The notes beneath the pieces were generated by a model. It made no database searches. It was not told where the DNA came from and saw only the letters and a program-made list of their open reading frames with translations. Below, one piece after another: positions 1,565-54,936 of a stretch of 64,000 nt of DNA (within the stretch, counting starts at the first letter, position 1; every line of letters begins with the position of its first letter). Source of the DNA: Patescibacteria group bacterium (GTDB taxonomy: Bacteria; Patescibacteriota; Minisyncoccia; Phycocordibacterales; JAKAEA01); assembly GCA_040387855.1 (NCBI GenBank), contig JAZKCY010000001.1, positions 253,857-317,856 on the forward strand, in the 5' to 3' direction. A program made the position numbers and the translations under genes.

Positions 1565-1598
1565 AATAAAAAATTCCTCCAAGCGGTAGCAAGGGGAA

Positions 1599-1943
1599 TT
1601 ACTTCTTCTTGAGGAATTGATCCTTTAGCCGCCGAGAGAACCTTTTCTCTACGGCAAGGAGCTCATATTCCACAGTGTCGTTTGCTTCTGGGGTTTCTGA
1701 CCCGGGCTGAAGCAAGATTTGGACCTTGACCGGTCCAGACTGGGTGTGCGTGACTGTACTGCTTTTGACCTTTGCCACTCGTCCCCAGCTCAGAGTGGAC
1801 TCCAGATCTTCTTCGATCACACTGTCGAAGACCTGGGCTGAGCCGGGCGCTCCGACCTGTGCACTTCGAGGTGATGAGCTTGACGCTCCACACCCGACTG
1901 CGCTGATCATGAACACGATGGCCACGAGCATAGAACGTAGCAT
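1599..1943 (-). CDS. small lipoprotein, GC-rich gene of probable foreign origin
   Basis: Signal peptide with lipobox AVGC; GGAGG SD 6 nt upstream of ATG; GC content clearly above flanks; sits directly 3' of tRNA-Ser. Confidence 0.45.
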   Translation of the reverse strand: MLRSMLVAIVFMISAVGCGASSSSPRSAQVGAPGSAQVFDSVIEEDLESTLSWGRVAKVKSSTVTHTQSGPVKVQILLQPGSETPEANDTVEYELLAVEKRFSRRLKDQFLKKK

Positions 1944-2051
1944 CGGAGACCTCCGAGGTATATGTGAGCGCTGCTTTTATAATAAAAGCATAACTGGCAA
2001 AACTCTGCAATGAAATTTTGTGTTCTAGTATTCGTCGTATAAACTATAGAT

Positions 2052-2690
2052 ATGAAAATAACCAAATATGGCCACTGCTGTTTATTACTTGAAATAGAAG
2101 GAACACGAATACTTACTGATCCAGGCATATTTTCAACAACACAAAATGAAATTAAAGATATAGATGTGGTTGTTATTACTCATGATCATCAAGATCACTA
2201 CCATGTGGATTCTGTAAAAAAGATCATTGCCAATAATCCGGAAGTAAAAATTATTACAACAAGTTTTATGGCAGGGCTACTTGATAAAGAAAATATCAAG
2301 AATTATGAAATAGTAGATGAAGGGCAGAGCACAATCCAAAAAAATATTAAAATAGAAGCATATGGAACAAAGCATGCACAAATGCATTCTTCAATTCCTC
2401 AAACTTCAAATACAGGCTACTTTTTTGCAGATACGTTGTTTTATCCAGGAGATGCGTTTACAGATCCGAAGCGGCATATAGATATACTTGCACTTCCAGT
2501 AGCGGGACCATGGATGAAAATATCTGAAGCTATTGATTATGCTTTAGCACTTAAGCCTACAAAAGCTTTTGCTGTACATGATGCCGTAATGACTCGACCA
2601 GAACTAGCATCAAATTGGCCCAACAGAGTATTACCTCCAAATGGAATTGAATTCTTGGTACTTGAAATTGGCAAAGAATATGATTTCTAA
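2052..2690 (+). CDS. MBL-fold metallo-hydrolase
   Basis: HxHxDH motif (ITHDHQDH) and metallo-beta-lactamase-like layout. Confidence 0.7.
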   Translation: MKITKYGHCCLLLEIEGTRILTDPGIFSTTQNEIKDIDVVVITHDHQDHYHVDSVKKIIANNPEVKIITTSFMAGLLDKENIKNYEIVDEGQSTIQKNIKIEAYGTKHAQMHSSIPQTSNTGYFFADTLFYPGDAFTDPKRHIDILALPVAGPWMKISEAIDYALALKPTKAFAVHDAVMTRPELASNWPNRVLPPNGIEFLVLEIGKEYDF

Positions 2691-2958
2691 CAAAAAAGAA
2701 ATTCTCAAAGAACTCAAGACTATCCCTGGAGTTGGAAAAAGTATTGCTGAAGATTTATATGATCTTGGATATGTTTCTGTTGCTGATCTTAAAGATAGAG
2801 AGCCCATCATTATGTATGAACGGCTTTGTATAAAAGCAGGGAAGCATTTGGATAGATGTCTTTTGTATACATTTAAATGCGCTGTATATTATGCCTCTCA
2901 CAAAAAACATGATCCTGAAAAATTGAAGTGGTGGTATTGGAAAGATAAAGTGAAATAA
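2680..2958 (+). CDS. Cdd1-like helix-hairpin-helix protein
   Basis: IPGVGKSIAEDLYDLGY HhH motif and CAVYYASHKK block resemble Cdd1/pathogenicity-locus family; overlaps stop of upstream gene by 11 nt. Confidence 0.4.
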   Translation: MISNKKEILKELKTIPGVGKSIAEDLYDLGYVSVADLKDREPIIMYERLCIKAGKHLDRCLLYTFKCAVYYASHKKHDPEKLKWWYWKDKVK

Positions 2959-2981
2959 AAAACACCATTTGCGCAATGGTG
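2954..2981 (-). terminator. rho-independent terminator for small GC-rich ORF
   Basis: Hairpin CACCATTGCGCAAATGGTG followed by T-run on minus strand. Confidence 0.45.
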
Positions 2982-3021
2982 TGTGCAGTGTTCCTGCTCT
3001 AGAGAATCGCAGAGCCAAGCG

Positions 3022-3153
3022 TTAGGGCAGCTGGCATGCCCCGTGGAACTTGAGATATTCCTCTCGCTCAGCGGGGCTCATGTCTTCTGCTTTTCCTGGC
3101 TTGGGCTCGTCGTCTTCCTTCGGGAGTTTGACTTGGTCATCGCTCTTCGCCAT
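3022..3153 (-). CDS. 43-aa highly charged small protein (GC-rich micro-island)
   Basis: ATG preceded by GGAGGA SD at -5; hairpin terminator downstream; not in ORF track (<60 aa); translation MAKSDDQVKLPKEDDEPKPGKAEDMSPAEREEYLKFHGACQLP. Confidence 0.3.
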   Translation of the reverse strand: MAKSDDQVKLPKEDDEPKPGKAEDMSPAEREEYLKFHGACQLP

Positions 3154-3281
3154 GAAATCCTCCGTGCGCTAGAACTTTGAGACATGCCCATGTTTTCGAA
3201 CTGGGCTATTAATAACTCTACAACTATAAAATATCATGTCAAGTGGTATGAAATTTCTTACTTCATCGTCTTTTAATAGTA

Positions 3282-3944: not shown

Positions 3945-3948
3945 TTAT

Positions 3949-4461: not shown

Positions 4462-4520
4462 ACGTGTATAATAGAGAGATCTAAGTGAGGTAATTACAAA
4501 TTTTTATAGTAAATTTAGGT

Positions 4521-5552: not shown

Positions 5553-5576
5553 TCCTGCTAAACTAGTAAATTCAAA

Positions 5577-5600
5577 GAGCACCCGAAAGGGTGTTTTTTG
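5577..5600 (+). terminator. rho-independent terminator after gap
   Basis: CACCCGAAAGGGTG hairpin followed by TTTTTTG. Confidence 0.55.
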
Positions 5601-8189: not shown

Positions 8190-9185
8190 ATGCTCAATCC
8201 TCAAGCAAAATTAAATCCAAAAGTATTTGATGGTGATGTAGAACAAGTTCCAATCCGAAAAGGATTTGGTGAAGGGTTATTGAAAGCGGGGGAATTGGAT
8301 CCTCAGGTAGTGGGATTGTGTGCGGATCTTACTGAATCGACTCAGATGCATCTCTTTAAAGAAAAGTTTCCTGCACGATTTGTAGAAATTGGAGTAGCAG
8401 AACAAAACCTAGCCTCTGTGGCCTCAGGAATGGCTGCAATGGGCAAGATTCCTTTTATCACCTCATATGCCATGTTTTCTCCAGGACGTAACTGGGAGCA
8501 AATTAGAACGACTATTGCTTACAATAATGTGCCCGTAAAAATTGCTGGATCACATGCTGGGATTTCTGTGGGACCTGATGGAGGAACACATCAAGCAGTT
8601 GAAGACTTGGCATTAATGCGAGTGATTCCAAGAATGATTGTTCTTTCTCCCTGTGATTTTATTGAAGCTCGAAAGGCAACACTTGCAGCTGCAAAAATTA
8701 AAGATCCTGTATATATTCGATTGGCTCGAGATAAGACTCCGGTTATCACTACTGAAGAAACAGTTTTTGAAATAGGTAAAGCACAAACCGTGTGGCAGCC
8801 AGCTGCAGGAAAAGCTGATGTGGGAATTATTGCTACAGGTGCCTTGGTACATAAAGCATTACTTGCAGCAAAGGAATTGGAGAAAGAAAAAATTGGTGTC
8901 ACCGTAATTAATCTTGCAACTATCAAGCCTCTTGATGAGAAAGCTATAATAAAATTAGCGCAAGACACATGTGCAATTGTAACTGTTGAAGAACATCAAA
9001 TTGCTGGAGGAATGGGATCAGCAGTATCAGAATGTTTAGCAAAAAATAAACCGGTACCACAAGAATTTGTTGGTGTGAAAGATGAATTTGGTCAGTCAGG
9101 AACTCCCGCAGAACTTATCGAACATTATGGAATGGGGCAAAAAGATATTATTGCTGCTGTTAAAAAAGTAATGAAGCGTAAATAA
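8190..9185 (+). CDS. tkt: transketolase, C-terminal (pyrimidine-binding) subunit
   Basis: FVEIGVAEQN motif and C-terminal domain; start reset to ATG 8190 after an N-terminal extension of the ORF. Confidence 0.75.
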   Translation: MLNPQAKLNPKVFDGDVEQVPIRKGFGEGLLKAGELDPQVVGLCADLTESTQMHLFKEKFPARFVEIGVAEQNLASVASGMAAMGKIPFITSYAMFSPGRNWEQIRTTIAYNNVPVKIAGSHAGISVGPDGGTHQAVEDLALMRVIPRMIVLSPCDFIEARKATLAAAKIKDPVYIRLARDKTPVITTEETVFEIGKAQTVWQPAAGKADVGIIATGALVHKALLAAKELEKEKIGVTVINLATIKPLDEKAIIKLAQDTCAIVTVEEHQIAGGMGSAVSECLAKNKPVPQEFVGVKDEFGQSGTPAELIEHYGMGQKDIIAAVKKVMKRK

Positions 9186-9188
9186 TTC

Positions 9189-10064
9189 ATGCAATTCAGT
9201 AACTTTTTTTCAAATACAGTACATGATTCTGAAATAGGTGATGTCTTGAAATATGCTTTTAATGAGCGTCTTGCAGAGGTGCTCATTTTTATTGGAGGGA
9301 CAATGGTGTGGTGGGTATTTGTTGTTACGTTCTTTGGTACGTCAATGATGTTTCTCTACCTTGTCCCATTAGCATTGGCTATCGCTGGCTATTATCTATT
9401 TTATTTGGATAGTAAAGAAGTATTTATTGAGCACTATGCTGCGTCAGAAAATTATACCTATTCAGAATATGGTGAACCGTCACTACTTGAAGGATCTGCA
9501 TTTAAACAAGGTCATAGTCATACTATGAAAAATGTTATTCGAGGACATTTTGAAAATCATGAATTTCAGGTATTCACTTTTACGTATGCTCTAGGAGAGG
9601 GAAAAGAAACATGTTATTACACATCTACAGTTTTTGAACTCGATTTTGAGCATCCTATGCCGCATATGGTGCTTGTATCTCGGTATTTAGAAAATGCCGT
9701 AAATGTGATGGTAGATGGACTGCTGTCGCTTGCATATGTGAGTAAGAGTTTTCCAATGGTAAAATCAGGAAAGTCATATCTTGCATTAGAGGGGGATTTT
9801 CAAAAGTATTTTAATCTTTATATAGATAAAGAACACAGCCAGGAAGTTCTGGAAATATTTTCACCTGATGTTATGGCAGACTTCATTGATTATGGAAAGC
9901 ATTACAGTGTTGAGTTTGTCGACGATAAAATTTATATTTTCTATGGAAGTGAAGTGAATCGACGAAAAGAACTTGATGCATTTTATGCACTTGCGCGGTT
10001 GCTCACATCAAAAATGGCATTTATGTTTTTGAAGAAAAAACCTGATTGGTTGTATGTAAAATAA
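9189..10064 (+). CDS. hypothetical membrane protein (two N-terminal TM helices)
   Basis: ORF with hydrophobic N-terminus; no confident family assignment. Confidence 0.4.
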   Translation: MQFSNFFSNTVHDSEIGDVLKYAFNERLAEVLIFIGGTMVWWVFVVTFFGTSMMFLYLVPLALAIAGYYLFYLDSKEVFIEHYAASENYTYSEYGEPSLLEGSAFKQGHSHTMKNVIRGHFENHEFQVFTFTYALGEGKETCYYTSTVFELDFEHPMPHMVLVSRYLENAVNVMVDGLLSLAYVSKSFPMVKSGKSYLALEGDFQKYFNLYIDKEHSQEVLEIFSPDVMADFIDYGKHYSVEFVDDKIYIFYGSEVNRRKELDAFYALARLLTSKMAFMFLKKKPDWLYVK

Positions 10065-11161: not shown

Positions 11162-12031
11162 ATGAAAACATTACGCGAATATATTCAAGATGCTGAAGAT
11201 AAGAAGATTGCTATTGGTCATTTTAATATTTCAAACTTAGAAGGAGTCTGGGCAGTATTTAATGCCGCAAAGAAACTTAATGTCCCTGTAATTATTGGAG
11301 TGTCAGAAGGCGAGCGAGATTTCGTTGGAGTGAAGCAAATTGCTGCTGTCATTAAGACAATTAGAGATGAGCATCAGTACCCAATTTTCTTAAACGCAGA
11401 TCATACCTATTCATTTGAGCGAGTAAAAGAAGTAGTTGATGCGGGATTTGATGCTGTAATTATTGATAACGCTAAAGCAACAAAAGAAGAAAATATCAGA
11501 ATTACAAAGCAATGCGTTGAATATGCAAAGAGTGTAAATCCAAATATTTTAGTTGAAGCAGAGCTTGGATACATTGGGCAGTCATCAAAAATGCTTGATG
11601 CAATTCCAGAAGGAGCAGCAACAGATAGAAGTGGATTTACTACACCAGAAGATGCTACGGAATTTGTAAAAGCAACGGGTGTTGATCTATTGGCTCCAGC
11701 TGTTGGGAATATTCACGGAATGCTTAAAAATGTACCAAACCCACATTTAGATATTGAATTAATTAAAGAAATTAGAACTATGGCGGGAGTGCCTTTAGTG
11801 CTTCATGGGGGATCAGGAACATCAGATGCTGATTTTACGGCTGCAATTCAAGCTGGTATTTCTACTGTTCACATAAATACAGAACTACGAGTGGCATACA
11901 GAAAGGGTATGGAACAGAGTCTTAAAGATAATGCTGATGAAATTGCTCCCTATAAATATATGAAAGGCCCACTTGAAGCAATGTCGAAAGTAGCAGAGGA
12001 TAGATTGAAACTTTTTAACAACATAGCATAA
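11162..12031 (+). CDS. fba: class II fructose-bisphosphate aldolase
   Basis: NADHTYS, LHGGSGTSD, VHINTEL motifs of class II ketose-bisphosphate aldolases. Confidence 0.75.
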   Translation: MKTLREYIQDAEDKKIAIGHFNISNLEGVWAVFNAAKKLNVPVIIGVSEGERDFVGVKQIAAVIKTIRDEHQYPIFLNADHTYSFERVKEVVDAGFDAVIIDNAKATKEENIRITKQCVEYAKSVNPNILVEAELGYIGQSSKMLDAIPEGAATDRSGFTTPEDATEFVKATGVDLLAPAVGNIHGMLKNVPNPHLDIELIKEIRTMAGVPLVLHGGSGTSDADFTAAIQAGISTVHINTELRVAYRKGMEQSLKDNADEIAPYKYMKGPLEAMSKVAEDRLKLFNNIA

Positions 12032-12035
12032 GACA

Positions 12036-12293
12036 ATGGAAGAAATCGAGTTTATCTCATCGCCAGAAAATGATAATACTTCGACAAAGCATCTTAATGT
12101 TGTAAAACCAAATTATTCTCCTGTAGTAAATTGGTTGGTTCGCAAAGGAATATTTTCTTCACTAAAGAATGCAAATAGAGCAATGATTGTAATAATCATT
12201 GCTCTATTTGTGATTTCAGTTGGGGTATTTATAGTGGGAAGTTATTATATTGAAAATAGGGCACCTCTTGAAGTGCGTTCAAAGTATAGATAG
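12036..12293 (+). CDS. small single-pass membrane protein
   Basis: ORF with one TM helix; unknown function. Confidence 0.3.
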   Translation: MEEIEFISSPENDNTSTKHLNVVKPNYSPVVNWLVRKGIFSSLKNANRAMIVIIIALFVISVGVFIVGSYYIENRAPLEVRSKYR

Positions 12294-12824: not shown

Positions 12825-13593
12825 AAAAGGTTTTACTCTAATAGAGCTTCTTGTCGTAATTGCAATAATTTCTTTGCTTTCGAGTGTTGTATTTACTGCA
12901 ACTAATGTTGCTCGTGCAAAGGCTCGTGATACACGCAAGCTTGCAGATGCTAATCAGGTGAAAACTGCGCTCAATTCTTTTAATCTTGAAGAAGAAGGAA
13001 TGCCGGGAAATTACAATTGTGATGGGAGCTATTGTTCTGGAGGAGGGGGGACATTTCTTGCTATTGAAGATATCAATAATCCTACAGACCCTCAGACTGC
13101 AAGTGGACAGGCTTACAACAGAAGCATGCAGGATTTAGTAGATGCTGGTGTGCTGGGTGCAATTCCGCATAGTCCTGGGGGAAGTCCGTATGCTTATTAT
13201 AACTATGGAATAACATCACTTGGTGCCGTTTTTGGAACTGAGCTAGAAACAGACACTCGTAGGATACATACTAGAATTGCTGTAGCAACGTTATACAGCA
13301 CAGATATGGAAAGTGGGAGGGAGGTATGTGAGACATACAGTAATAGTGAAGATGCAGGACGAGTGTACTATCTTTATTGTGATGATATTCCAAATAATGA
13401 ATGGTGTAGCCACATCGCAAGTGATCCCGGAAATTATCCTTCTCCTGGCTCGGTAACAAACAATCTTGCATATGTGGGAGAGGGTTGGCCTCAGAGTGAG
13501 TATTGTGTGCCTTTAGCGTACTCATCTGTATCGCCTGCACCCACACTTCTTTGTCAGAATAATGTATTTGAATATTGCATCATAGCCCCGTAG
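12811..13593 (+). CDS. type IV pilin-like protein (prepilin-type N-terminus)
   Basis: KGFTLIELLVVIAIISLL class III signal / N-methylation motif; Cys-rich C-terminal domain. Confidence 0.6.
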   Translation: MYKDKKGFTLIELLVVIAIISLLSSVVFTATNVARAKARDTRKLADANQVKTALNSFNLEEEGMPGNYNCDGSYCSGGGGTFLAIEDINNPTDPQTASGQAYNRSMQDLVDAGVLGAIPHSPGGSPYAYYNYGITSLGAVFGTELETDTRRIHTRIAVATLYSTDMESGREVCETYSNSEDAGRVYYLYCDDIPNNEWCSHIASDPGNYPSPGSVTNNLAYVGEGWPQSEYCVPLAYSSVSPAPTLLCQNNVFEYCIIAP

Positions 13594-25740: not shown

Positions 25741-25766
25741 AAATCTAAAAATAAAATAAACGTTTA

Positions 25767-25795
25767 GCCCGGCTGCGTGTGGTACGCAGCCGGGC
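25767..25795 (+). terminator. GC-rich palindrome H1 (putative pheT terminator / REP-like element)
   Basis: GCCCGGCTGCGT-GTGGT-ACGCAGCCGGGC perfect 12-bp stem, weak T-run. Confidence 0.45.
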
Positions 25796-26150
25796 TTTCG
25801 ATTGGCGTCAGTGATGTCGACGCCGATGTTTCTTCTTGGGCCTGATCTTCCCCCTGTTTTTCCAGTGCTTGTTGCACAGGATGTTTGTGGTGCACGTGCA
25901 ACGTTTACTTCGCGTGATACGCTCGAACGGTTGGTACAAAGGGAGAGCAGCGTGCTCCCACCTCATCGGGGAAAGGTTTCGGCATGCGAAGACCTTTTTG
26001 ACCCGATTGGACCTACCGACCGGTAAGAAATTCTGTGCCAATCATTGTCTCCGAGAGAAGTCCTGGCTATTCCAATAGCCGTTCCTTCTGCATTCTTCCA
26101 TACTATAAAAAAATAATCAACAAAATATGTAAATGAAATCCAGAGGTGAG

Positions 26151-26182
26151 GAAGCCCGACTCGCGTGGTGCGGTCGGGCTTC
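26151..26182. repeat. GC-rich palindrome H2, related to H1
   Basis: GAAGCCCGAC-TCGCGTGGTGCG-GTCGGGCTTC; shares GCCCG..GCGTGGT.CGC..CGGGC core with H1. Confidence 0.4.
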
Positions 26183-26215
26183 TGGGAAACGAAGAACGTG
26201 AACGGTCGCGTAAGT

Positions 26216-26491
26216 CTACGCGAGCGTGAGCATGCCGATCTTCGGCACTCGAATGCGCGGCCGCATCTCGTTGTTCGCGTGGTGCGTTGGCGAGTAGTAG
26301 GCGCAGACGGGCGTCGGGACCGTGGGGCAGATCTCACTGTCGACGATCCGGCGGTCGATCTCGTCGATTGGGATGTCGACCGTCAGGCGGTGGTCGGCGA
26401 TCGCCCGGTCGAGCCGCTTTTGCTCGTCGGGGTAACCGAACTGGGACATTGCCGTCGGGATCTTCGGGTGACGGGGAGCGTGACGAATCAT
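26216..26491 (-). CDS. 91-aa acidic hypothetical protein with very high GC3 (foreign-derived)
   Basis: ATG with GAGG SD; third-codon positions almost all G/C, unlike any native gene in the window. Confidence 0.4.
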   Translation of the reverse strand: MIRHAPRHPKIPTAMSQFGYPDEQKRLDRAIADHRLTVDIPIDEIDRRIVDSEICPTVPTPVCAYYSPTHHANNEMRPRIRVPKIGMLTLA

Positions 26492-26649
26492 GAGAACCTC
26501 GAGATGAAACAGAAACCGTTCCTGGATACCAATCCATTGGCACCAGCTTCATGTATTATAGCATTTTGAGCATAAAAGTCAAGTTGGAAAAGGTGGATAT
26601 GGCGGCCCAGGCTAGCCGTATAAAATAGGTATGCTATGATGTACCCCGT

Positions 26650-27210: not shown

Positions 27211-27553
27211 ATCCTCTTAAACTAACCTGAGAACTGGGGGCAGTCCTAACCCGAGGTCCACATGGCAGAATTTGGAGATGAATGGTCTGTGTGCTCGTGT
27301 TCGTGTCACGACCCAAATGGCGGGCCGCCGCGCGCTGACCACTGCATTCCGTGTTGTACTCATTGCCCGTGGTGTGCTCAGAACATCACGGGCAACCTCG
27401 ATGCACACATTGCTGGTGTTCATCCCACACACGTGGGGCAACCCTTTCCTTTCGTCAGTCCCTTAGCGGGGCTTTCCGACCAACCACTGGTCGGGTAGTC
27501 AGCAGGGGATTTTTTTATTACAAAATTTATATAAAAAAAGCCGTTCGCGGGTG

Positions 27554-27967
27554 CTACTTGGCTGGTGTTTTTTCGAAACTTTTTGCAAGGTAAAGTGTGG
27601 TATTGTAGGCAACTTTGAATTGAACATACCACACTTGTCCTACACTCCCGGTGCTATCATCCCGACCTCTCGGATTGAACCACACCTGCCGCACAACATA
27701 TGTGGCATGCTCTTCAGTGAGAGTGATATCGCCGATCTCGGGGGGAATGGGTGTTACAACCGGGCGGACTACATCATCCACCTTGAATGGCGGTTGCAAC
27801 CCAAGGAGCCGAGCGTGTAAGGCTCCGCTTAGCCAGTTCACCATCTTGCGAGTTGCGCGTAACCCGGGCTCTTCACCAAAGGAAGTGGCTCCGGTTCGCT
27901 CTGCAGCACGTACAAGCTCCTGCACAAGCTCGACGTTATCCATCGTGTACGGATCTCTTTTTGACAT
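27554..27967 (-). CDS. 137-aa hypothetical protein in GC-rich micro-island
   Basis: ATG preceded by AAGGAG SD at -7; no family recognised. Confidence 0.4.
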   Translation of the reverse strand: MSKRDPYTMDNVELVQELVRAAERTGATSFGEEPGLRATRKMVNWLSGALHARLLGLQPPFKVDDVVRPVVTPIPPEIGDITLTEEHATYVVRQVWFNPRGRDDSTGSVGQVWYVQFKVAYNTTLYLAKSFEKTPAK

Positions 27968-28062
27968 GCGGTTACTCCTTTTCCATACATTATAGTAGTC
28001 AAAATTGGGTTTGTTGCAAGCTCTAAAATTTGCTATAATAGAGTATCTAAAAATTTACAAAA

Positions 28063-36251: not shown

Positions 36252-38000
36252 TTATTTCTTTTCCTGAATTTCTTGTGTGAGTTTTGCTACAAGATCTTCA
36301 ACACTCATTTGTCCCAACTGACCTTGCTCTCGATGTTCAAGAGTTACCACTTTAGCTTCTATTTCGTTATCACCAATAACAACCCAATATGGGATCTTAT
36401 CTACCTTCGCACCTCGCACTTTCTTTCCCATGCCGTCTTTGCTGTCATCAAATTCTACACGTACACCTGCTTTTTTTAGAGCTGCTGATACAGTTGCTGC
36501 ATAGTCATTGTGTTCTTCTCGTACAGGAATAACTTTAACTTGAGTAGGTGAAAGCCATGTTGGAAAGTTACCCGCAGTGTGTTCGATAAGTGTCGCCATG
36601 AATCGTTCGATAGAACCCATGATAGCTGCATGAATCATAACCACATCTTCTTTCAGCCCTTCTTCATTTGTAAATGTAAGTCCAAAGTTTTTTGGCTGAA
36701 GGAAATCGAGCTGAATTGTAGCAACTTGGAGTACTCGTCCGATAGCATCTTTAGCAATGAAGTCGAGCTTTGGTCCGTAGAAAGCAGCTTCACCAACTCC
36801 ATCTATCCATTCAATACCTCGAGCTTTCATAAGGTTTACCATGGCACTTTCAGATTTTTCCCATGTTTCTTTTGTACCCATATACTTCTCAAACTTTTCT
36901 GGGTCATGCCGAGAGAATCGTACTTTAATATCTGAGAATCCAAATGTTCCGTAAAATTTATCTACAATATCCCAGATGGAAAATACTTCTTGTTCAATTT
37001 GGTTTTCTCTACAGAATACATGGGCGTCATCTTGAGTAATTGAAAGCACTCGTGAAAGTCCTGAAAGTTCTCCAGATTGCTCGTCTCGATACACCATTGT
37101 TGTTTCTGCGTATCGCTGCGGCATTTCTCGATAACTTCGTGGAGCAGAATCAAAGATCTGAGTATGATGAGGACAGTTCATAGGTTTAACAACATATGTT
37201 TTTCCTTCACGAGTTTGAATCTTGAAGAGGTCTTCAGAATACTTTTGCCAGTGTCCAGATGTTTCGTATAAATCCTTCTTTGTAATATGAGGAATAGTTA
37301 CTTTTTCATATCCTTTAGCAACTCGAAGTTCCCAAATGTATTTATCCAATAAATCTCTAACCATACTTCCTTTAGGCGTCCAAAGAGGAAGTCCTGGTCC
37401 AACCAGTGGGGAAAATACAAAGAGCCCCATTTCTTTACCAAGCTTTTTGTGATCTCGCTTTAATGCTTCTTCCCGCTGTGCAATGTAGGCTGCAAGTTCT
37501 TCTTTTGTATCAAATGCTAATCCGTATACACGTGTAAGCATCTTATTCTTTTCATCTCCGCGCCAGTAGGCACCTGCAACTCGTTCCAATTTATATGATC
37601 CTGAAGCTATATCTTCTTTAGGATTAGCAACATGGCCTCCTCGGCAAAGATCTGTGAAATTTCCAGAAGTGTACAGAGTAATCTTTTCTCCTTTAGCTAT
37701 GATTTCATCTATGAGTTCTAGTTTATAAGGATTACCTTTGAAATGCTCACGAGCTTCTTCAGGAGATACCTCTTTGTGAGTAAATTCTTTCCATCCCTTA
37801 ACAAGCTCTTTCATTTTCTGTTCAACTTTGCCTAAATCTTTTTCAGTTATAGGTTCGGCAAATTCAAAGTCGTAATAGAAACCATTGTCCACCGCAGGAC
37901 CAATAGTGTTTTTAGCATCTGGCCAAAATTCTAATACCGCTGCTGCCATGAGGTGGGCGAGAGTATGTCGTTTGTATTCTAGATTCTTTTCAGGATTCAT
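36252..38000 (-). CDS. thrS: threonine--tRNA ligase
   Basis: Class II aaRS with HxxxH zinc motif region and C-terminal anticodon-binding domain; start set at MNPEKNLEY because the hairpin and T-run lie within the longer ORF. Confidence 0.85.
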   Translation of the reverse strand: MNPEKNLEYKRHTLAHLMAAAVLEFWPDAKNTIGPAVDNGFYYDFEFAEPITEKDLGKVEQKMKELVKGWKEFTHKEVSPEEAREHFKGNPYKLELIDEIIAKGEKITLYTSGNFTDLCRGGHVANPKEDIASGSYKLERVAGAYWRGDEKNKMLTRVYGLAFDTKEELAAYIAQREEALKRDHKKLGKEMGLFVFSPLVGPGLPLWTPKGSMVRDLLDKYIWELRVAKGYEKVTIPHITKKDLYETSGHWQKYSEDLFKIQTREGKTYVVKPMNCPHHTQIFDSAPRSYREMPQRYAETTMVYRDEQSGELSGLSRVLSITQDDAHVFCRENQIEQEVFSIWDIVDKFYGTFGFSDIKVRFSRHDPEKFEKYMGTKETWEKSESAMVNLMKARGIEWIDGVGEAAFYGPKLDFIAKDAIGRVLQVATIQLDFLQPKNFGLTFTNEEGLKEDVVMIHAAIMGSIERFMATLIEHTAGNFPTWLSPTQVKVIPVREEHNDYAATVSAALKKAGVRVEFDDSKDGMGKKVRGAKVDKIPYWVVIGDNEIEAKVVTLEHREQGQLGQMSVEDLVAKLTQEIQEKK

Positions 38001-38003
38001 ATG

Positions 38004-38215
38004 ATAATAATTAGTAAATAAAAACGCCCTAGTAAATATACAAACAAAAGTTTGCGTATTTACTAGGGCGGGGAATTCAAATGTAATTTGATTGCCTCGT
38101 GGTTCCACCTAGTTTCCCAGAATAATCCAGGCACTCAAGGTTGTTTACAGATTAGGATTAACTCTGATTGCTCAGACTGGAGTTGGTAGCTCCAGCAATC
38201 TCTATAAAGCTTCTC
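38004..38215 (-). promoter_or_regulatory. T-box riboswitch leader (Thr specifier ACC) with intrinsic terminator upstream of thrS
   Basis: On sense strand: hairpin GGAG-CUACCAA-CUCC with ACC+A, T-box-like AACUAGGUGGAACCACGAGG, then 14-bp terminator stem CGCCCUAGUAAAUA.../...UAUUUACUAGGGCG plus UUUUUAUUU about 20 nt before ATG. Confidence 0.5.
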
Positions 38216-38295
38216 TATAGTATGGAGTTTCCCTGTGGATGTCAATATAAGCGAGCTTTGCTATACTATCTCTATAATCATGTAACTAAATATTT

Positions 38296-39908: not shown

Positions 39909-42900
39909 TTACAAAACTTTTACTTTTTCTACAAGAATACTAGGTGTCCCATTTCGTAATGAGAATTTACCTTTGATAGCAATACAGTTGTCTTGTTGCA
40001 ACATTGATTCAAATTCTTTTAGTGTTCGAGGGAAGGCAACAGCTTCAATCGAGCTTGAATAATCAGAGAGCTTTAAGAATGCCATTTTATCACCCTTCTT
40101 AGTGTTGATTGGTTTTACTTCTTCAAGTAATCCATAGACCACAGCCATCATACCGTCTTTCAATACTTCTTTTGTTTTCTTAATATTCATTTCAACTCGA
40201 GTCATCTTTGCCTGATGCTGATCGAGTGGGTGGCCAGAAATATACAATCCTAGCAATTCTTTTTCCCAGACAAGCATTTCAGGTCCTGTAGCTGCTGGAG
40301 CATCTTTCATGCGGAGTGATGGAACAGTTGTCGTATCTGCCATAAGTCCAAAGAGTGAATCTTGATCGTGAGTAGCAGTTGATTCTTTATTGTATTTCAA
40401 AAGATCATCAATATTTGCAAGCATATGACCTCGTTCTCCAAGTTTATCCATAGCTCCACACTTAATGAGTGCTTCAAGCGACTTTCTGTTTAGAGCTCGG
40501 TCTTTAATTCTGTTTAAAAAATCTACAAGAGTAGGAAAAGGACCTCCACGTTTTCGTTCTGCAATAATTATGTCACCAATACCTTCACCGAAGTTTTTGA
40601 TAGTAGTAAGTCCAAATCGTATAGCATCGATCATCTTCTTATTACCAGTTTTTGCACTGGTAATTTCAGAGTGGTTTTTTATTACAGTAAAATGCGTATC
40701 ACTTTCATTGATATCAGGGGGAAGTACGGCAATACGCATTCGTTTACATTCTGTAATGATTTCGGCAACTTTTTCGGTGTCTCCTGATTCGGCAGTGAGT
40801 ACGGCACTCATATAAATAGCAGGGAAGTTGGCCTTCATGTATGAGGTTTGATAGGCCACTCGTCCGTATGACGCTGCGTGAGCTTTATTGAATCCGTAGG
40901 CAGCAAATGGTTCGATAAGTTTCCAAAGTTCTTCTGCTTTTGCTTCAGGAAGTCCATTTTTAATAAGACCATCCATGAGCTTTCCTTTTTCAGCTTGCAT
41001 AACTTCAGGAATTTTCTTACCCATAGCTTTTCGGAGTTTATCCGCTTCAAGCCATGAATAGCCGGCAAGGTGAATAGCGGTAAGCATCACGTCGTCTTGG
41101 TACACAAGCAGTCCGAATGACATATCCAAATACTCTTTCATTCGTTTATCCAAAAATTCTATTTTTTGAGGATTGTGTTTTCGTTCAATGTAGGTTGGGA
41201 TCATTTCCATAGGACCTGGTCGGTAGAGTGCCACCATCGCATTGATGTCGTGAATTGTTGAAGGCTTAAGTTCTTTTAGGAACTTCGTCATACCTGTTCC
41301 GTTTAATTGGAAAAGCCCCACTGTTTCTCCACGAGCAAGCATTTGGAATGTCTTCTCATCAGCAATAGGGACATTTTCGATATCTACATCTATATTTTCA
41401 ATTTCTTTTACTTTTATCACAGCATCGGCAAGAATAGAAAGGTTTCGAATTCCAAGAAAGTCGAATTTCAAAAGTCCCACGCCGTCTTCTCCCACGCCGT
41501 GCATGTCGTACTGGGTAATGAGTTTTCCTTCTCCTTTAGGATCAAACTGAATAGGTACATGATTTGTAAGTGCATCTGGAGCAATCACCACACCGGCCGC
41601 GTGAACTGAAATGTGACGTGCACATCCTTCAATCTTTTTGGCCATTTCAATGATGTCACGTACTTCGGGCTCTGCATCATAAATCTTTTTAAGTTCAGGT
41701 TCTTCTTCAAGTGCTCGATCAATAGTCATAGCAAAACCTTGAGAACCCATTGGAATGAGTTTTGAAATTCGATCTCCTGTGGCCACAGGATAGCCCATCG
41801 CTCGAGCAACGTCGCGCACAGCACCTTTGGCTGCCATCGTTCCAAACGTTCCAATCTGAGCTACTTTTTCAGCCCCATACTTTCTACGTGCATAGGCAAT
41901 AACTTCGTCACGACGGTTATCGGCATAGTCCATATCGATATCGGGAGCAGATGGTCGTTCGGGGTTTAAGAATCGTTCGAACGGAAGTTTGTAGCTAAGA
42001 GGATCTACGTTTGTAATCTTTGTAAGATAGGTTACAAGAGATCCCGCAACAGATCCTCGAATGGTTGTGAGAATTTTATTATCATGAGCAAAATGCAGTA
42101 GGTCAGATACTACTCGGAAATATTTTGCATATCCTTTGTTTTTGATAACTTCTAATTCGTAGTCCAATCTTTTAATAAGTTCTGGAGATCGTTCCATGCC
42201 TCGTTTTTCAATTCCTTCATAGGCAAGATCTCGAAGTACGTCATCATGAGTTTTACCAGGAACTTCTTCAATATCAGGGAAGTACCATGTGCTCATGTGA
42301 ATATCCACATTACACATTTCAGTAATTTTTTTTGTATTTTCGAGAGCCTCAGGCATATTAGCAAAATACTCGTCTGCTTGGTCAGGTGAAATAAATGAAA
42401 AATCTTCTTCTGAATCGTCAAAACTTCGTTCACTCATGTCTCCACCAGATTGAATAGACATGAGGGTATTACGTGCTGCCCGATCTTCAGGATCAAGATA
42501 ATACACATCATGTGCTGCCATGATCTGAGTGTTTGTTTCTTTTGCCAAATCTCGCAACTCTTTCATAAGTTCCTGATGATTTGAAATTTCAGGATGATGT
42601 GTGATTTCTAAGAAGAAGTTTTCTTGTCCATAGACAGATTTGTAAAACTCAAGCCATTCTAATGCTTTTTCTTTATCATGTTGCTTCAATGCCAAACTAA
42701 TAGCACTAGAGAATGATGGAGCGATACATACTACATCATCTTTATACTGAGAAATTAATTCTTTATCTAATCGTGGTTTGTAATAAAATCCCGATAAATG
42801 TGATTCGGTCACCAATGCAATTAATTGCTTATAGCCATTTTGATTTTTGGCTAAAAGCACCAATCGTGATCGCTTGTTATCGATACCGGATGTTTTGTCA

Positions 42901-43163
42901 TGTCGAGTTCGAAGGGCAACATAAAAATCAACACCAATAATTGGTTTGATTTCATTTTTTTTGCAAGCTTTGTAGAACTCAATGGTGCCGTACATATTAC
43001 CGTTGTCGGTAATTGCAAGTGCAGGCATTCCCAGTTTCTTTGCTTTTTTAACGAGGTCAGGAATTTGAGGGAGAGCATTCAATAAACTGTAGTGAGTATG
43101 AACGTGAAGATGCGTGAACTTGTAAGGTACAGGTTCCTTTGGGGTAGGTGTTGGATCTGCCAT
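39909..43163 (-). CDS. dnaE: DNA polymerase III alpha subunit
   Basis: N-terminal PHP domain (HLHVHTHYSLL), polymerase core, OB-fold C-terminus; 1084 aa. Confidence 0.9.
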   Translation of the reverse strand: MADPTPTPKEPVPYKFTHLHVHTHYSLLNALPQIPDLVKKAKKLGMPALAITDNGNMYGTIEFYKACKKNEIKPIIGVDFYVALRTRHDKTSGIDNKRSRLVLLAKNQNGYKQLIALVTESHLSGFYYKPRLDKELISQYKDDVVCIAPSFSSAISLALKQHDKEKALEWLEFYKSVYGQENFFLEITHHPEISNHQELMKELRDLAKETNTQIMAAHDVYYLDPEDRAARNTLMSIQSGGDMSERSFDDSEEDFSFISPDQADEYFANMPEALENTKKITEMCNVDIHMSTWYFPDIEEVPGKTHDDVLRDLAYEGIEKRGMERSPELIKRLDYELEVIKNKGYAKYFRVVSDLLHFAHDNKILTTIRGSVAGSLVTYLTKITNVDPLSYKLPFERFLNPERPSAPDIDMDYADNRRDEVIAYARRKYGAEKVAQIGTFGTMAAKGAVRDVARAMGYPVATGDRISKLIPMGSQGFAMTIDRALEEEPELKKIYDAEPEVRDIIEMAKKIEGCARHISVHAAGVVIAPDALTNHVPIQFDPKGEGKLITQYDMHGVGEDGVGLLKFDFLGIRNLSILADAVIKVKEIENIDVDIENVPIADEKTFQMLARGETVGLFQLNGTGMTKFLKELKPSTIHDINAMVALYRPGPMEMIPTYIERKHNPQKIEFLDKRMKEYLDMSFGLLVYQDDVMLTAIHLAGYSWLEADKLRKAMGKKIPEVMQAEKGKLMDGLIKNGLPEAKAEELWKLIEPFAAYGFNKAHAASYGRVAYQTSYMKANFPAIYMSAVLTAESGDTEKVAEIITECKRMRIAVLPPDINESDTHFTVIKNHSEITSAKTGNKKMIDAIRFGLTTIKNFGEGIGDIIIAERKRGGPFPTLVDFLNRIKDRALNRKSLEALIKCGAMDKLGERGHMLANIDDLLKYNKESTATHDQDSLFGLMADTTTVPSLRMKDAPAATGPEMLVWEKELLGLYISGHPLDQHQAKMTRVEMNIKKTKEVLKDGMMAVVYGLLEEVKPINTKKGDKMAFLKLSDYSSSIEAVAFPRTLKEFESMLQQDNCIAIKGKFSLRNGTPSILVEKVKVL

Positions 43164-51286: not shown

Positions 51287-51370
51287 ATATGTATATAGAC
51301 GAACTATACCAATAATTATCAACATTGCAAAATTAAGCAATCTGTGCTGTAATGTGGACTGGAGGTGCTT

Positions 51371-51607
51371 ATGCGATCACGTATCAATAGGATTCTCCAG
51401 AGGTCGCGCGACCCACAGTCGTACCTCTGGCAGATCCGAGATTCCTGGCCGGTTCCAGCTCTACTTAATACGGCCTTGGTGGCACTTGCCTGTGTTGTGC
51501 CAGCAGCTGGGTTCCTCATTCTTGCAGGTCTGGGCGTTGCTGCCAACCTGCTGTACCTATTCTGCCTCTACATGGGGCCGACACAGCCTCCCCTCAAATC
51601 TGAGTAG
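51371..51607 (+). CDS. small two-TM membrane protein in GC-rich micro-island
   Basis: GGAGG SD 5 nt before ATG, hydrophobic core, strong terminator directly after stop. Confidence 0.35.
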   Translation: MRSRINRILQRSRDPQSYLWQIRDSWPVPALLNTALVALACVVPAAGFLILAGLGVAANLLYLFCLYMGPTQPPLKSE

Positions 51608-51621
51608 GGGAAGGCTTTTTT
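51585..51621 (+). terminator. rho-independent terminator
   Basis: GCCTCCCCTCAAATCTGAGTAGGGGAAGGC hairpin plus TTTTTTATTT. Confidence 0.6.
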
Positions 51622-51659
51622 ATTTGACCAATTTATCTAGATCTGCTACTATAGCGCTC

Positions 51660-51989: not shown

Positions 51990-52138
51990 ACAAAATCGCC
52001 CTTCGAGAATACTCAGGGCGGTTTTTGTTTGTCCCCATGTTTAGTATTTTATTGATTGACTCTAGATCTACCCCTGCTAAAATTAAATAAAGCAGTAATA
52101 TAACGTCGACCTACTGCAAGAAACGAACAGAATTATTT

Positions 52139-52450: not shown

Positions 52451-52475
52451 TAACTCATCTATACGATAAAGGGAA

Positions 52476-52510
52476 CCTGTTGTACTATATGTACAACAGG
52501 TTTTCTTTTT
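52476..52510 (+). terminator. rho-independent terminator
   Basis: ACCTGTTGTACTATATGTACAACAGGT hairpin plus T-run. Confidence 0.5.
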
Positions 52511-52525
52511 ATATTCTTATATTCC

Positions 52526-53743
52526 ATGAAATTTTTTATTGATCATAATCCCAATCATCGAAGTAACGTAAGTGTTGGTTTAATCATCGGTTTTATATGC
52601 ATCATTACAATTGCTGTTGTAGCACTTTTATTTGGATTCAATCAGTATGTACAATCGCTTGTTGATAAAGAGATCCCAGCTGCACAACCTCTGGGATCAA
52701 CAAATGTTGCATCATCATCTATTGAAATAAAAAACTTAGGGCAAGTACAAGAACAACTTGCTCTCGTTCAAAATAGCCCATTTCATAAAGTTGAACTCAA
52801 TAATCTATATCAAACTACTTATAATGGCCACACACTTATTGTTGGCGAACAAATCAATTACTATGGAAATGGGGTGGGAGAAACCTATAAACCACCAGTA
52901 ATAATTGCTGATGGTATTTTATATCATGCAAATGATATTGAATCTCAGTTTTATCCTCTCGAAGAAGTAAATTGGAAAACACTACATAAATCAAGAAGTA
53001 TTTCTGGATTTGTACCTTTTGAGAAAGATCTTTCTTTTATAGTAGCAATGCAAAAATCAGATGAAAGTAAATATTCACCAACTGAGGCAGAATATCTACA
53101 AACTCAAAATAATGAAGAGGCAATTTTCTCAAAGAAGTTTTTGAATATCGGTTCAATGACATTAGAATATACAAAGTCCGGAGGATTAACTGCTATGAAT
53201 CTATCTGAAGCAAGTGGGAAGGATGTAAATGCTATAACTACATTTAAGAAAATTCCTAATATGACTATTTATGTAAATCAATCAAATAAAGATACGATTG
53301 ATTATGATACTCAGGCCCGACAGAGTCGTCCAAAACCCGGGTTCGCTTCAGGACAAAATATCTTCTATTCTGAGTATGGATTTAAAGTGAACTACCCAAA
53401 ATTCATTAATGGTACTTCTGTAAAAATGTATTCTGATTCTGACCCAAACACACGAGTTGCTGTTACTAGTACCTTTTTTATTGATGGAGAAAATAAAGGA
53501 TATGGGGTTGAGACAGAAAATTATATGAGAATCTATTGTTCAGATTTTCAGGAAACTCAAATAGGTCCCAAAATAGGTGAACCGTATTTTATTGCAACTT
53601 CAACTCGCAGCAACCTAAAAAACTGGGGTATTTCAAATGACCCATATGCAGATATTGCCTCATTTACCTCAGAGTATGCTCATTGTTCAGTTAGTGCATC
53701 TGGGAAATTTAGGTTGAATATGCTTCTAATAGAGCTAGAATAA
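52526..53743 (+). CDS. 405-aa membrane-anchored hypothetical protein occupying the usual rimM slot
   Basis: N-terminal TM then large hydrophilic domain; no family recognised. Confidence 0.4.
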   Translation: MKFFIDHNPNHRSNVSVGLIIGFICIITIAVVALLFGFNQYVQSLVDKEIPAAQPLGSTNVASSSIEIKNLGQVQEQLALVQNSPFHKVELNNLYQTTYNGHTLIVGEQINYYGNGVGETYKPPVIIADGILYHANDIESQFYPLEEVNWKTLHKSRSISGFVPFEKDLSFIVAMQKSDESKYSPTEAEYLQTQNNEEAIFSKKFLNIGSMTLEYTKSGGLTAMNLSEASGKDVNAITTFKKIPNMTIYVNQSNKDTIDYDTQARQSRPKPGFASGQNIFYSEYGFKVNYPKFINGTSVKMYSDSDPNTRVAVTSTFFIDGENKGYGVETENYMRIYCSDFQETQIGPKIGEPYFIATSTRSNLKNWGISNDPYADIASFTSEYAHCSVSASGKFRLNMLLIELE

Positions 53744-53787
53744 GAGCTTGATTTAAAACAACACTTAATGCATACTATGTCAATAAT

Positions 53788-54471
53788 ATGCATTTTCACG
53801 TTATTACATTATTTCCCAACTCTTTTGACTCATACCTCGGTGAGTCTATTTTAAAGCGGGCAATTGAAGATAAAAAGATTCAAGTTCATCTTTATAATCC
53901 TCGAGATTATGGCGAAAAGAAGAATGGCCTTGAAGCACGCATTGATAGAAAGCCCTATGGCGGAGGGCCTGGTATGGTTATTCAAGCTTTACCTGTTGTA
54001 CTTGCTCTTGAAGATGCTCATAAAAAAATAGAGAAGAGATTTAAAACTAAAAAACTACTGGGTAAAAAGCCAAAAATTAAGATTCTTTTCTTCAGTCCAT
54101 CTGGTACTCAATTTACTACTGAATATGCAAAAGTAGCTGCAAAGAAATATACAGATATAGTTATGATTTCAGGTAGATATGAGGGTATAGATGCGCGGGT
54201 TAAGAAAATTTTTAAATGTGAAGATATTTCTGTAGGACCATTTGTGCTTACAGGAGGGGAACTACCTGCAATGATTATTATGGATTGTGTCGCACGGCAA
54301 ATAGAAGGAGTATTGGGAGATATAAATTCTCTTGAGGAATCACGTGCTGCTTCAGCAGATGTATACACACGTCCTGAGGTCTTTGAATATAAAAAGAAGA
54401 AATATAGTGTGCCAAAGGTTCTCCTTTCGGGTAATCATGGGGAGGTAGAGAAATGGCGAGCACAGCAATAG
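53788..54471 (+). CDS. trmD: tRNA (guanine37-N1)-methyltransferase
   Basis: SPOUT fold motifs incl. RKPYGGGPGMV and SGRYEGIDARV. Confidence 0.8.
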   Translation: MHFHVITLFPNSFDSYLGESILKRAIEDKKIQVHLYNPRDYGEKKNGLEARIDRKPYGGGPGMVIQALPVVLALEDAHKKIEKRFKTKKLLGKKPKIKILFFSPSGTQFTTEYAKVAAKKYTDIVMISGRYEGIDARVKKIFKCEDISVGPFVLTGGELPAMIIMDCVARQIEGVLGDINSLEESRAASADVYTRPEVFEYKKKKYSVPKVLLSGNHGEVEKWRAQQ

Positions 54472-54524
54472 TTGACAGATCCTGCTTTGAGGTGTATAAA
54501 AAAAGAAGGAACCCTGGAGGTAAT

Positions 54525-54674
54525 ATGTCCCAACCCCAATCCAGCGGGATAGACCACAGCGATTATCACAATAAGCCCCTGCGACGCTTCGTCGCATGGA
54601 TCATGCTTAGCCTGATGTTGCTAGGGGCTGTCAGCATGGTCTTCTCACTAGGCCGTGCATACGTTAACCCTTAA
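54525..54674 (+). CDS. 49-aa single-TM small protein in GC-richer patch
   Basis: GGAGG SD 5 nt upstream; hairpin CCCTTAAGC..GCTTAGGGG after stop. Confidence 0.3.
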   Translation: MSQPQSSGIDHSDYHNKPLRRFVAWIMLSLMLLGAVSMVFSLGRAYVNP

Positions 54675-54936
54675 GCTTGCTTAGGGGAATTTTTATACTA
54701 AATATAGTCGTATTTGACAAATCATTAGAATTTGATACAGTATCGATCTACCATTGCAAGATTGTGTTACGGCTGAATGATGGGAAATTATAAGGGAAGT
54801 TTGCCCAGTATCTTGCTACTCAACCTATAAACAAATTCAAAGCGCATAAAACGCCTCACCAGGGCCGTTTTTTGCGTTTATGGGTGTGTGAAAAGGTTAC
54901 TAGTAATAAAGAGGGAATTTATTAATTAGTATATTT

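Follow-up and report, generated by a model that had tools for sequence, protein, structure and literature searches.

GC-rich single-gene micro-islands between housekeeping genes of a Parcubacteria-like bacterium: possible moron-like acquisitions from a GC-richer gene pool

A 64,000-nucleotide stretch of the genome of a Patescibacteria group bacterium (contig JAZKCY010000001.1 of assembly GCA_040387855.1, positions 253,857 to 317,856), hereafter called the window, contains six short segments that are richer in guanine plus cytosine (GC) than the surrounding DNA and that carry small open reading frames (ORFs) led by Shine-Dalgarno (SD) sequences. How did such segments, termed islands here, come to lie among conserved housekeeping genes that hardly use SD sequences? 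The explanation that we prefer, and to which we give about an even chance of being right, is that they are moron-like, horizontally acquired single-gene units derived from a GC-richer, unsampled gene pool.

An earlier note on this DNA had described six GC-rich segments, each lying in an intergenic gap between conserved housekeeping genes and each encoding one or two small ORFs, and sliding-window GC analysis bears out this description. The GC content of islands 1 to 6 is 0.516, 0.524, 0.550, 0.515, 0.540 and 0.480 in order, and hence 0.48–0.55, compared with 39.1% (0.391) for the window, with a standard deviation of 0.055 across 150-nt windows. All six islands are intergenic and have housekeeping genes on both flanks. 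A GC profile at 40-nt resolution shows that the block edges are sharp, within 20–40 nt, and the GC richness extends to the non-coding portions of the blocks. Islands 3 and 4 consist of two GC blocks apiece with an AT-rich spacer between them, giving eight blocks in total with one candidate ORF per block, as follows.

Island 1, 1565..2010, minus strand: GC 0.52; ORF 1599..1943, 114 amino acids (aa); between tRNA-Ser and a metallo-beta-lactamase (MBL)-fold hydrolase.
Island 2, 2954..3242, minus strand: GC 0.52 over 2954-3180; ORF 3022..3153, 43 aa, acidic, isoelectric point (pI) 4.7; between a Cdd1-HhH protein and endonuclease V.
Island 3b, 25755..26110, minus strand: GC about 0.53; candidate ORF 25808..26041, 77 aa, with a TTG start after GGAG; between PheT and a P-loop kinase.
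Island 3a, 26135..26582, minus strand: GC 0.60-0.75; ORF 26216..26491, 91 aa; in the same gap as island 3b.
Island 4a, 27215..27520, plus strand: GC 0.53-0.70; candidate ORF 27262..27498, 78 aa, with 9 Cys and 7 His; between the P-loop kinase and GyrB.
Island 4b, 27554..27980, minus strand: ORF 27554..27967, 137 aa; in the same gap as island 4a.
Island 5, 51341..51625, plus strand: GC 0.54; ORF 51371..51607, 78 aa; between RNase R and ribosomal protein S16.
Island 6, 54472..54700, plus strand: GC 0.48; ORF 54525..54674, 49 aa, with one predicted membrane helix; between TrmD and RpoB.

An unbiased screen of the window returns nine qualifying ORFs in 64 kb, eight of them real, and thereby recovers the same island ORFs. 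No further island emerges from this screen of the 64-kb window, the sole extra hit being a spurious ORF antisense to tRNA-Ser.

The island ORFs differ from native genes in codon composition. The GC content at the third codon position (GC3) ranges from 0.18 to 0.38 in the native reference set, made up of 50 native ORFs that are each 90 aa or longer, and from 0.51 to 0.87 in the island ORFs. At four-fold degenerate sites the base frequencies are A.46, C.10, G.07 and T.37 in native genes and A.23, C.30, G.28 and T.19 in the island ORFs. Translational selection or codon optimization was considered as the cause of the high GC3 and rejected, the frequency of G at four-fold sites being.28 in the islands and at most.10 in native rpsP-type genes. 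Because four-fold-site G rises four-fold, unlike in native highly expressed genes, the island ORFs reflect a different mutational background. Orphan genes normally match the GC content of their own genome, with lower values in those of viral or de novo origin (PMC11293555). An outside source is argued because the island orphans, unlike usual orphans, lie 13–25 GC points above their genome.

The mode of translation initiation sets the island ORFs apart as well. The earlier note had assigned a canonical SD sequence to every island ORF, and this holds for the five that have GGAGG or AAGGAG 4–7 nt ahead of ATG (1599..1943, 3022..3153, 27554..27967, 51371..51607 and 54525..54674); two others have GAGG 5 nt ahead of ATG (26216..26491 and 27262..27498), and the remaining one has GGAG ahead of a TTG start (25808..26041). 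As that note had also claimed, native genes mostly lack a strong SD sequence: any SD-like motif is found in only 1 of the 50 native ORFs. In the 3,360 bp of the islands, seven combinations of SD, ATG and an ORF of at least 40 aa are observed, whereas 0.45 are expected from dinucleotide-preserving shuffles of the islands themselves, none of 500 shuffles reaching seven; for the strict motifs GGAGG and AAGGAG, five are observed and 0.07 expected in the same test. All strict SD-led true ORF starts in the window lie inside islands. A TATAAT-like -10 hexamer ends 0–14 nt before the start codon in 21 of the 50 native genes (for example at 2052, 14396, 23095, 39909-43163 and 53788), which suggests, as far as such motifs can tell, that the mRNAs of native genes are predominantly leaderless or very short-leadered. 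SD use is also about 0% in close relatives, and among the loci examined only one, distant and of high GC, carries the 3' end of 16S rRNA. The anti-SD sequence is near-universally conserved in bacteria. SD-led initiation is probably functional in this organism, because of this conservation and because an AT-adapted homologue of the 137-aa ORF, on the contig L165, retains its SD sequence.

The predicted products are diverse. ORF 1599..1943 of island 1 is preceded by GGAGG at 1950-1954, 6 nt ahead of ATG, and has GC contents of.58/.44/.60 at codon positions 1/2/3. Its N-terminus, MLRSMLVAIVFMISAVGC, starts with MLR, continues with a hydrophobic core (Kyte-Doolittle 2.2) and reaches AVGC with Cys18, so that the product is a predicted lipoprotein, the lipobox AVGC having been read by eye against a PROSITE-type rule. 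The ORF gives a marginal match to PHROG 13810 (E 4.7e-4), and a single-sequence AlphaFold2 (AF2) model with a predicted local distance difference test score (pLDDT) of 52 was discarded. No repeat of the tRNA-Ser end is present at island 1, although the island abuts the tRNA. ORF 3022..3153 of island 2 has GGAGG at 3159-3163, 5 nt ahead of ATG, a period-3 signal (p = 0.0015), a promoter-like TTGACA-16-TAGAGT at 3242-3215 with a score of 10/12, and a called terminator hairpin (2982-2962) with a T-run after it. In island 5, the product of ORF 51371..51607 has a basic N-terminus; ~42 of its residues form a hydrophobic segment with a Kyte-Doolittle maximum of 2.6 that is likely to contain two membrane helices. 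The ORF is led by GGAGG at 51361-51365, 5 nt ahead of ATG 51371, which is a better start than GTG 51365; TGcTGTAAT at 51346-51354 and a hairpin with a T-run at 51586-51621 were read by eye. ORF 54525..54674 of island 6, with a Kyte-Doolittle hydropathy of 2.3, has GGAGG at 54516-54520, 4 nt ahead of ATG. The promoter of this island was read by eye as TTGACA at 54472-54477, 17 nt and TG-TATAAA at 54493-54500, and its terminator hairpin at 54668-54687 was called. A second in-frame ATG upstream, at 54453, is also SD-led and lies inside the 3' end of trmD.

The 91-aa ORF 26216..26491 of island 3a is the most extreme in composition. The earlier note had remarked that nearly all its third codon positions are G or C, and its GC3 is indeed 0.87 (GC1/2/3 = 0.62/0.45/0.87); together with the chi-square test for period 3 (p = 1e-8), this is a high-GC coding signature. 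Its codons are rich in CCG, ACG, GCG, GAC and ATC in actinobacterial style. GAGG at 26497-26500 lies 5 nt ahead of ATG, the promoter at 26582-26555, TTGACT-16-TATAAT plus an upstream TG, scores 11/12, and a terminator hairpin is found at 26153-26183. Gene callers treat this region differently. The Prokaryotic Genome Annotation Pipeline (PGAP) at NCBI annotates a 77-aa hypothetical protein, MES2436689.1, in the GC3-rich frame, and the gene caller of the Logan assembly places a 72-aa and a 124-aa ORF in window positions 25963-26552, in frames differing from those of PGAP. Among 5.8 billion proteins, the 91-aa ORF matches only itself.

The 137-aa ORF 27554..27967 of island 4b has AAGGAG at 27975-27980, 7 nt ahead of ATG, and TATAAT 21 nt upstream of ATG. 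It likewise finds only itself among the 5.8 billion proteins. When 1.84 billion representatives are searched exhaustively with HMMER, three remote homologues (P0004-P0006) emerge with E values of 6e-4 to 9e-4; these are of similar size, align from the N-terminus and reach E values of 1e-9 to 1e-10 in local tblastn. The family (P0001 and P0004-P0006) has the motifs DPY.W..EL..EL..AA and L.G...ARL.G..PPFK.GD.V.P. An AF2 model of the protein (pLDDT 77; predicted template modeling score, pTM, 0.73) has two N-terminal helices and an SH3-like beta-barrel, with no significant fold neighbor in PDB or BFVD. The 137-aa ORF is a real protein that belongs to a very rare family. The homologues lie on SD-poor contigs with GC contents of 0.33, 0.48 and 0.55, each standing alone amid housekeeping genes, such as next to the S10-L3-L4-L23-L2 operon, and the housekeeping proteins of these contigs, ribosomal ones included, are singletons without a match among the related loci. 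On every contig the homologue is strongly SD-led and its neighbors lack SD sequences, so the SD sequence characterizes the family and is not left over from a high-GC donor. The GC3 values of the homologues, 0.23, 0.56 and 0.72, track the local genome, and so the family has no inherently high GC content; in the window, its member has a GC3 of 0.51 on a background of 0.26. Since the homologues take on the local GC content, the window copy looks imported from a GC-richer carrier of the SD-poor kind. At L165 1417-2983, the immediate neighbors of the AT-adapted homologue are a BrnT/CopG toxin-antitoxin pair and a GIY-YIG gene, which gives it mobile-looking surroundings.

Comparison with relatives bears on whether the units were inserted. 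PheT identity reaches at best 51% in a scan of 185,579 species representatives and 48% in one of Joint Genome Institute (JGI) metagenomes, and the organism is a Parcubacteria/Paceibacterota-like bacterium of the Candidate Phyla Radiation (CPR) with a genome of roughly 1 Mb. In the closest syntenic relative, locus L002, the order pheS-pheT-kinase-gyrB is kept and the gap between the kinase gene and gyrB is 99 bp, compared with 852 bp in the window, which makes island 4 an insertion by comparison with L002. The gyrB promoter AAATTTGCTATAATA is conserved in the window (28030-28045), in L002 (about 12925-12945) and in a second relative, L004 (about 12255-12275), with PheT only about 51% identical to that of the window.

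The slot downstream of pheT, where island 3 lies, is occupied by SD-led GC-rich ORFs in five lineages, namely the window, L002, L004, L015 and L017. Those of L015 (about 9164-9256) and L017 (12092-12313) are homologous small ORFs of Zn-ribbon-like type (CxxC...HxC). Those of L002 (11982-12120) and L004 (about 11960-12050, minus strand) have in common an SD sequence and the N-terminus MRR..RPI...AGGS, a motif found nowhere else among 165 loci. Several third-position differences in their first 15 codons, read by eye, are synonymous, and a 10-nt duplication or frameshift follows the N-terminus in one of the two genomes. L002 and L004 are 67% identical in PheT and about 70% identical in coding DNA, with saturated synonymous sites. 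A near-consensus promoter is found at the same position downstream of pheT in the window, L002 and L004, and the window ORF there is unrelated to the other two: homology of island 3a to the L002/L004 unit was considered and rejected, the promoter region alone being alignable. The pattern at this slot may reflect either a native class whose GC content is maintained or repeated uptake from one pool into a permissive slot; one recent import alone does not account for it. L017 has three SD-led GC-rich ORFs within a 1.2-kb gap.

Under the preferred explanation, eight independent micro-islands of about 200–450 bp each would have been inserted separately at operon boundaries of the core genome. Each unit would run from an AT-rich promoter-like edge through a short leader with an SD sequence and one small ORF to a hairpin terminator. 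Their source would be one or more GC-richer unsampled donors, more likely other bacteria of CPR type, or the mobile elements of such bacteria, than an actinobacterial host. As products the units would have accessory proteins of small size, namely a lipoprotein, a pair of small membrane proteins, an acidic peptide, the 137-aa protein with helices and an SH3-like domain, the 91-aa protein and two uncertain ones that are Cys/His-rich or basic. Expression of the islet genes would depend on leadered, SD-dependent initiation, in contrast to the SD-less and largely leaderless native genes. The analysis establishes the composition, layout and non-randomness of the units, the lack of island 4 in a syntenic relative, the conservation of one family as protein, and the exclusion of known RNAs, of repeats and of phage and plasmid homologues, whereas the horizontal origin of the units, the nature of the donor, their expression and their function are inferred. 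The repeated capture from a high-GC donor proposed in the earlier note survives as regards foreign composition, separate small units and the absence of island 4 from L002, and it finds no backing in donor homologues, as the self-matches of the 91-aa and 137-aa ORFs illustrate.

Such units resemble phage morons, a concept reportedly due to Hendrix and colleagues. Morons are single extra genes with their own promoter-like sequence and terminator, located between conserved genes, deviant in composition, absent from relatives at the same junction and often encoding small membrane proteins or lipoproteins. The candidate counterparts here are the promoters of the 91-aa ORF (11/12 plus TG) and the 43-aa ORF (10/12), and the terminators called for the 43-aa and 49-aa ORFs and seen by eye for others, with the limit that promoter-like matches in the islands are no more frequent than chance in such AT-rich DNA. 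Unlike morons, the units lie in the core chromosome among housekeeping genes without phage genes nearby.

Several observations weigh against acquisition from outside. No donor was identified. No phage or plasmid homologue of the island ORFs is found by pooled tblastn of 50,697 phages and 72,556 plasmids, nor any relative in IMG/VR, in a further difference from morons; the PHROG match of the lipoprotein stands alone and is marginal. No island ORF matches Pfam, NCBIfam or PADLOC. No flanking direct or inverted repeats exceed chance (the longest are 8–9 nt, and the null P for at least 8 nt is 0.14), there are no target duplications, and neither the islands nor the annotated neighbor genes contain an integrase or recombinase. 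Coding evidence is wanting for two of the eight ORFs, 25808..26041 and 27262..27498. Orphan status is itself weakened because six of the eight island ORFs do not appear in a collection of 15 billion proteins although this genome is part of it, so that unannotated homologues elsewhere would be invisible. No relatives sharing the flanks of islands 1, 2, 5 and 6 were found, and the presence/absence comparison covers islands 3 and 4 only. The ORF common to L002 and L004 has a GC content of 0.61-0.64 on a background of 0.42; an imported ORF would have ameliorated, yet this one stays GC-rich, which disfavors a one-off import. Finally, in 58 SD-less related loci (970 kb), the GC3 of SD-led small ORFs exceeds that of the large genes of the genome in 18 of 22 cases (14 of 17 once duplicates, three actinobacterial loci and the ascertained locus L162 are removed), which hints at a property of the class and not at random import.

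The last two points are among those that speak for the most durable alternative, a good deal less probable in our judgment than acquisition from outside: SD-led small accessory genes would be a native, long-standing minority in SD-less Parcubacteria-type genomes, with their GC content upheld by selection on mRNA or protein or by recombination-linked GC-biased gene conversion, and the window would merely be rich in them, its low background GC exposing them. In the same 970 kb, 22 strict SD-led small ORFs are found, compared with 4 in the reversed-sequence control, and the retention of a homologous GC-rich ORF in the same slot of L002 and L004 despite saturated synonymous divergence, the near-consensus promoter at one position in the window, L002 and L004, and the SD sequence of the 137-aa family, kept even in the fully AT-adapted L165 copy (GC3 0.23), are all consistent with such a class. 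However, the 137-aa family takes on the local GC elsewhere, the four-fold-site pattern of the window is that of a mutational background, L002 lacks island 4, and the GC3 spread of 0.51–0.87 among the islands fits differing sources or ages. Moreover, the 160 related loci contain no homologue of any island ORF, apart from the loci of the 137-aa family, which were fetched for that family. The same screen that yields nine ORFs in the 64-kb window yields 10 in about 1.84 Mb of related loci, and strict SD-led small ORFs occur at a density of ~1 per 44 kb in relatives and ~1 per 11–13 kb in the window.

A related and broader proposal, which we offer tentatively and regard as rather improbable, is that SD-less, largely leaderless CPR bacteria of Parcubacteria type possess small accessory genes that form a class of their own and can be exchanged. 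Such genes would have a leader and a strong SD sequence, be of intermediate-to-high GC content, occupy recurrent operon-end slots such as that after pheT and turn over between lineages, with the window genome as an extreme carrier. If true, a major radiation of uncultured bacteria would have an undescribed two-tier gene organization, its core being leaderless and its flexible pool of micro-genes SD-led.

It is unlikely that some of the blocks are instead structured non-coding RNAs or cis-regulatory elements, GC-rich because of their structure and containing ORFs as a by-product of few stop codons. The idea draws on the overlapping ORFs in several frames over which gene callers disagree and on blocks 3b and 4a, where a coding signal is not convincing. 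The candidate ORF of block 3b encodes a very basic, Cys/His-rich peptide with a pI of 11.7 and GC1/2/3 of.44/.47/.67. The block includes a 13-bp terminator hairpin at 25768-25800 that it has in common with pheT, and its folding z-score is -5.05 with this terminator and -1.65 without it; it may encode the peptide or may instead be a small RNA (sRNA). The candidate ORF of block 4a, with GAGG 5 nt ahead of ATG and a hairpin with a T-run at about 27470-27520, shows no period-3 signal (p = 0.59) and is skipped by the Logan gene caller, and the folding z-score of the block is -1.0 to -2.1. The RNA of the 114-aa ORF in island 1 folds much better than its shuffles (z -4.0), unlike the other islands. 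With this exception, the folding z-scores of the island ORFs range from +1.0, for the 91-aa ORF, to -2.8, compared with -0.7 ± 1.15 (minimum -2.8) in native controls, and RNA structure as a general cause was rejected because most values fall inside this control range. In addition, none of the known structured RNAs, including tRNA, tmRNA, RNase P RNA, signal recognition particle (SRP) RNA, 6S RNA, riboswitches and large ornate RNAs, is found in any island by ARAGORN or by Rfam 15, either at the gathering threshold or with E values of up to 10 admitted. The coupling of SD, ATG and ORF at 15-fold above composition-matched chance, the conservation of the 137-aa family as protein across very different DNA, the strong period-3 signal of the 91-aa ORF and the signal peptide, lipobox and membrane features of the predicted products all argue for coding sequences.

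Capture from a high-GC host or neighbor such as an actinobacterium, as suggested in the earlier note for an epibiotic Saccharibacterium, is quite unlikely. CPR bacteria are often epibionts of other microbes, and the 91-aa ORF has the codon usage expected of such a donor, with its GC3 of 0.87. However, a Saccharibacterium identity is not supported, the nearest genomes being Parcubacteria/Paceibacterota-type metagenome-assembled genomes (MAGs) with PheT identities of at most 51%. The 91-aa and 137-aa ORFs have no homologue in a protein collection in which Actinomycetota are heavily sampled, and the sole remote homologues lie on SD-poor contigs of unsampled lineages that are not actinobacterial. 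Most islands have a GC content of merely 48–55%.

A dedicated integron-like or other site-specific cassette system that fills fixed slots, for example after pheT, is very improbable. Different GC-rich SD-led ORFs do occupy the pheT slot in the window, in L002/L004 and in L015/L017, and integron cassettes and clusters of attC sites lacking integron-integrases (CALIN) likewise contain small, mostly orphan ORFs of foreign composition, with different genes in the same slot. Unlike such cassettes, the units have no common or attC-like ends, inverted repeats of the attC kind not exceeding chance in a repeat comparison made without a dedicated attC model; they have no integrase in or beside them, are not arrayed, and each has its own promoter-like sequence. 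Operon ends may simply be permissive for insertion. No sequence similarity exists among the islands or between them and the rest of the window, and, together with the lack of terminal repeats above chance, this led to the rejection of a repeated cassette family, a miniature inverted-repeat transposable element (MITE) or an insertion sequence (IS), so that the family of mobile cassettes envisaged in the earlier note fails at the sequence level.

An assembly chimera or contamination is barely conceivable: the source is a metagenome-assembled genome, but islands 3 and 4 are not an assembly artefact, because the Logan assembly (SRR26324620), made independently, matches a stretch of 14,445 bp that covers both and their junctions with 100% identity, and native sequence lies on both sides of each block within a few hundred bases, with coherent gene signals in each. 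Exact look-ups of island ORFs and native neighbors returned neither gene calls nor independent assemblies for islands 1, 2, 5 and 6.

Returning to single-gene units of outside origin, two further known systems invite comparison. Like ORFan islets of atypical composition, the units are deviant in GC content and codon usage, restricted in lineage, small and of no known function. Foreign or orphan bacterial genes are usually AT-richer than or equal to their genome (PMC11293555), whereas the units here are 10–25 GC points richer than the genome. They also differ from such islets in being single genes of ~200–450 bp, occurring about once per 8 kb in a streamlined genome without mobility genes, and in an initiation mode unlike that of native genes.

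Islands 5 and 6 alone recall type I toxins, with intergenic, unannotated, SD-led ORFs of 78 and 49 aa, one or two membrane helices and Kyte-Doolittle maxima of 2.6 and 2.3. Type I toxin-antitoxin loci are typically overlooked by annotation. In contrast to such loci, islands 5 and 6 have short leaders, unremarkable folding z-scores (-1.5 and -2.8) and no repeated copies, and the other six ORFs do not encode hydrophobic peptides.

No paper on such a pattern in CPR genomes was found within a limited literature search. CPR genomes are tiny and streamlined, and their accessory content and routes of gene flow are poorly understood. One foreign single-gene unit per ~8 kb would correspond to roughly a hundred units genome-wide if this density holds. 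In that case the flexible proteome of small secreted or membrane proteins, candidates for host interaction, would be substantial and for the most part unannotated. Because gene callers mis-frame or skip these ORFs and six of the eight are missing from the 15-billion-protein collection, protein catalogues under-represent islet genes and 'orphan' calls are unreliable. The coexistence of SD-less native genes and SD-led islet genes would be a natural experiment on translation initiation in CPR bacteria, implying functional SD recognition despite near-zero SD use in the core genome.

Other features of the window are as follows. One of them adjoins an island:

tRNA-Ser(GGA), 1477..1564, plus strand: native, found by ARAGORN and by the Rfam tRNA model (58 bits); abuts the left edge of island 1.

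A GC peak at 1222-1450 was considered as part of island 1 and rejected, as it consists of the Gly-rich tail of a native TPM-domain protein and of this tRNA. The protein, encoded by ORF 527..1435, has a long Gly-rich C-terminal tail, GGGWGGGFGGGSSGGGGFGGFGGGRSGGGGSSGSW, which produces a strong peak of GC and G-skew adjoining island 1. Upstream of the 618-aa ORF 36252..38108, a sub-threshold T-box-like Rfam match at 38061-38283 on the minus strand (23 bits versus a gathering score of 93; E 0.42) is probably noise. Between the genes for KhpA and TrmD, at the usual position of RimM, a 405-aa ORF without a Pfam match spans 52526-53743. The KhpA gene is followed at 52468-52508 by a near-perfect hairpin with an 18-bp stem and then T's, far longer than the other terminators in the window.

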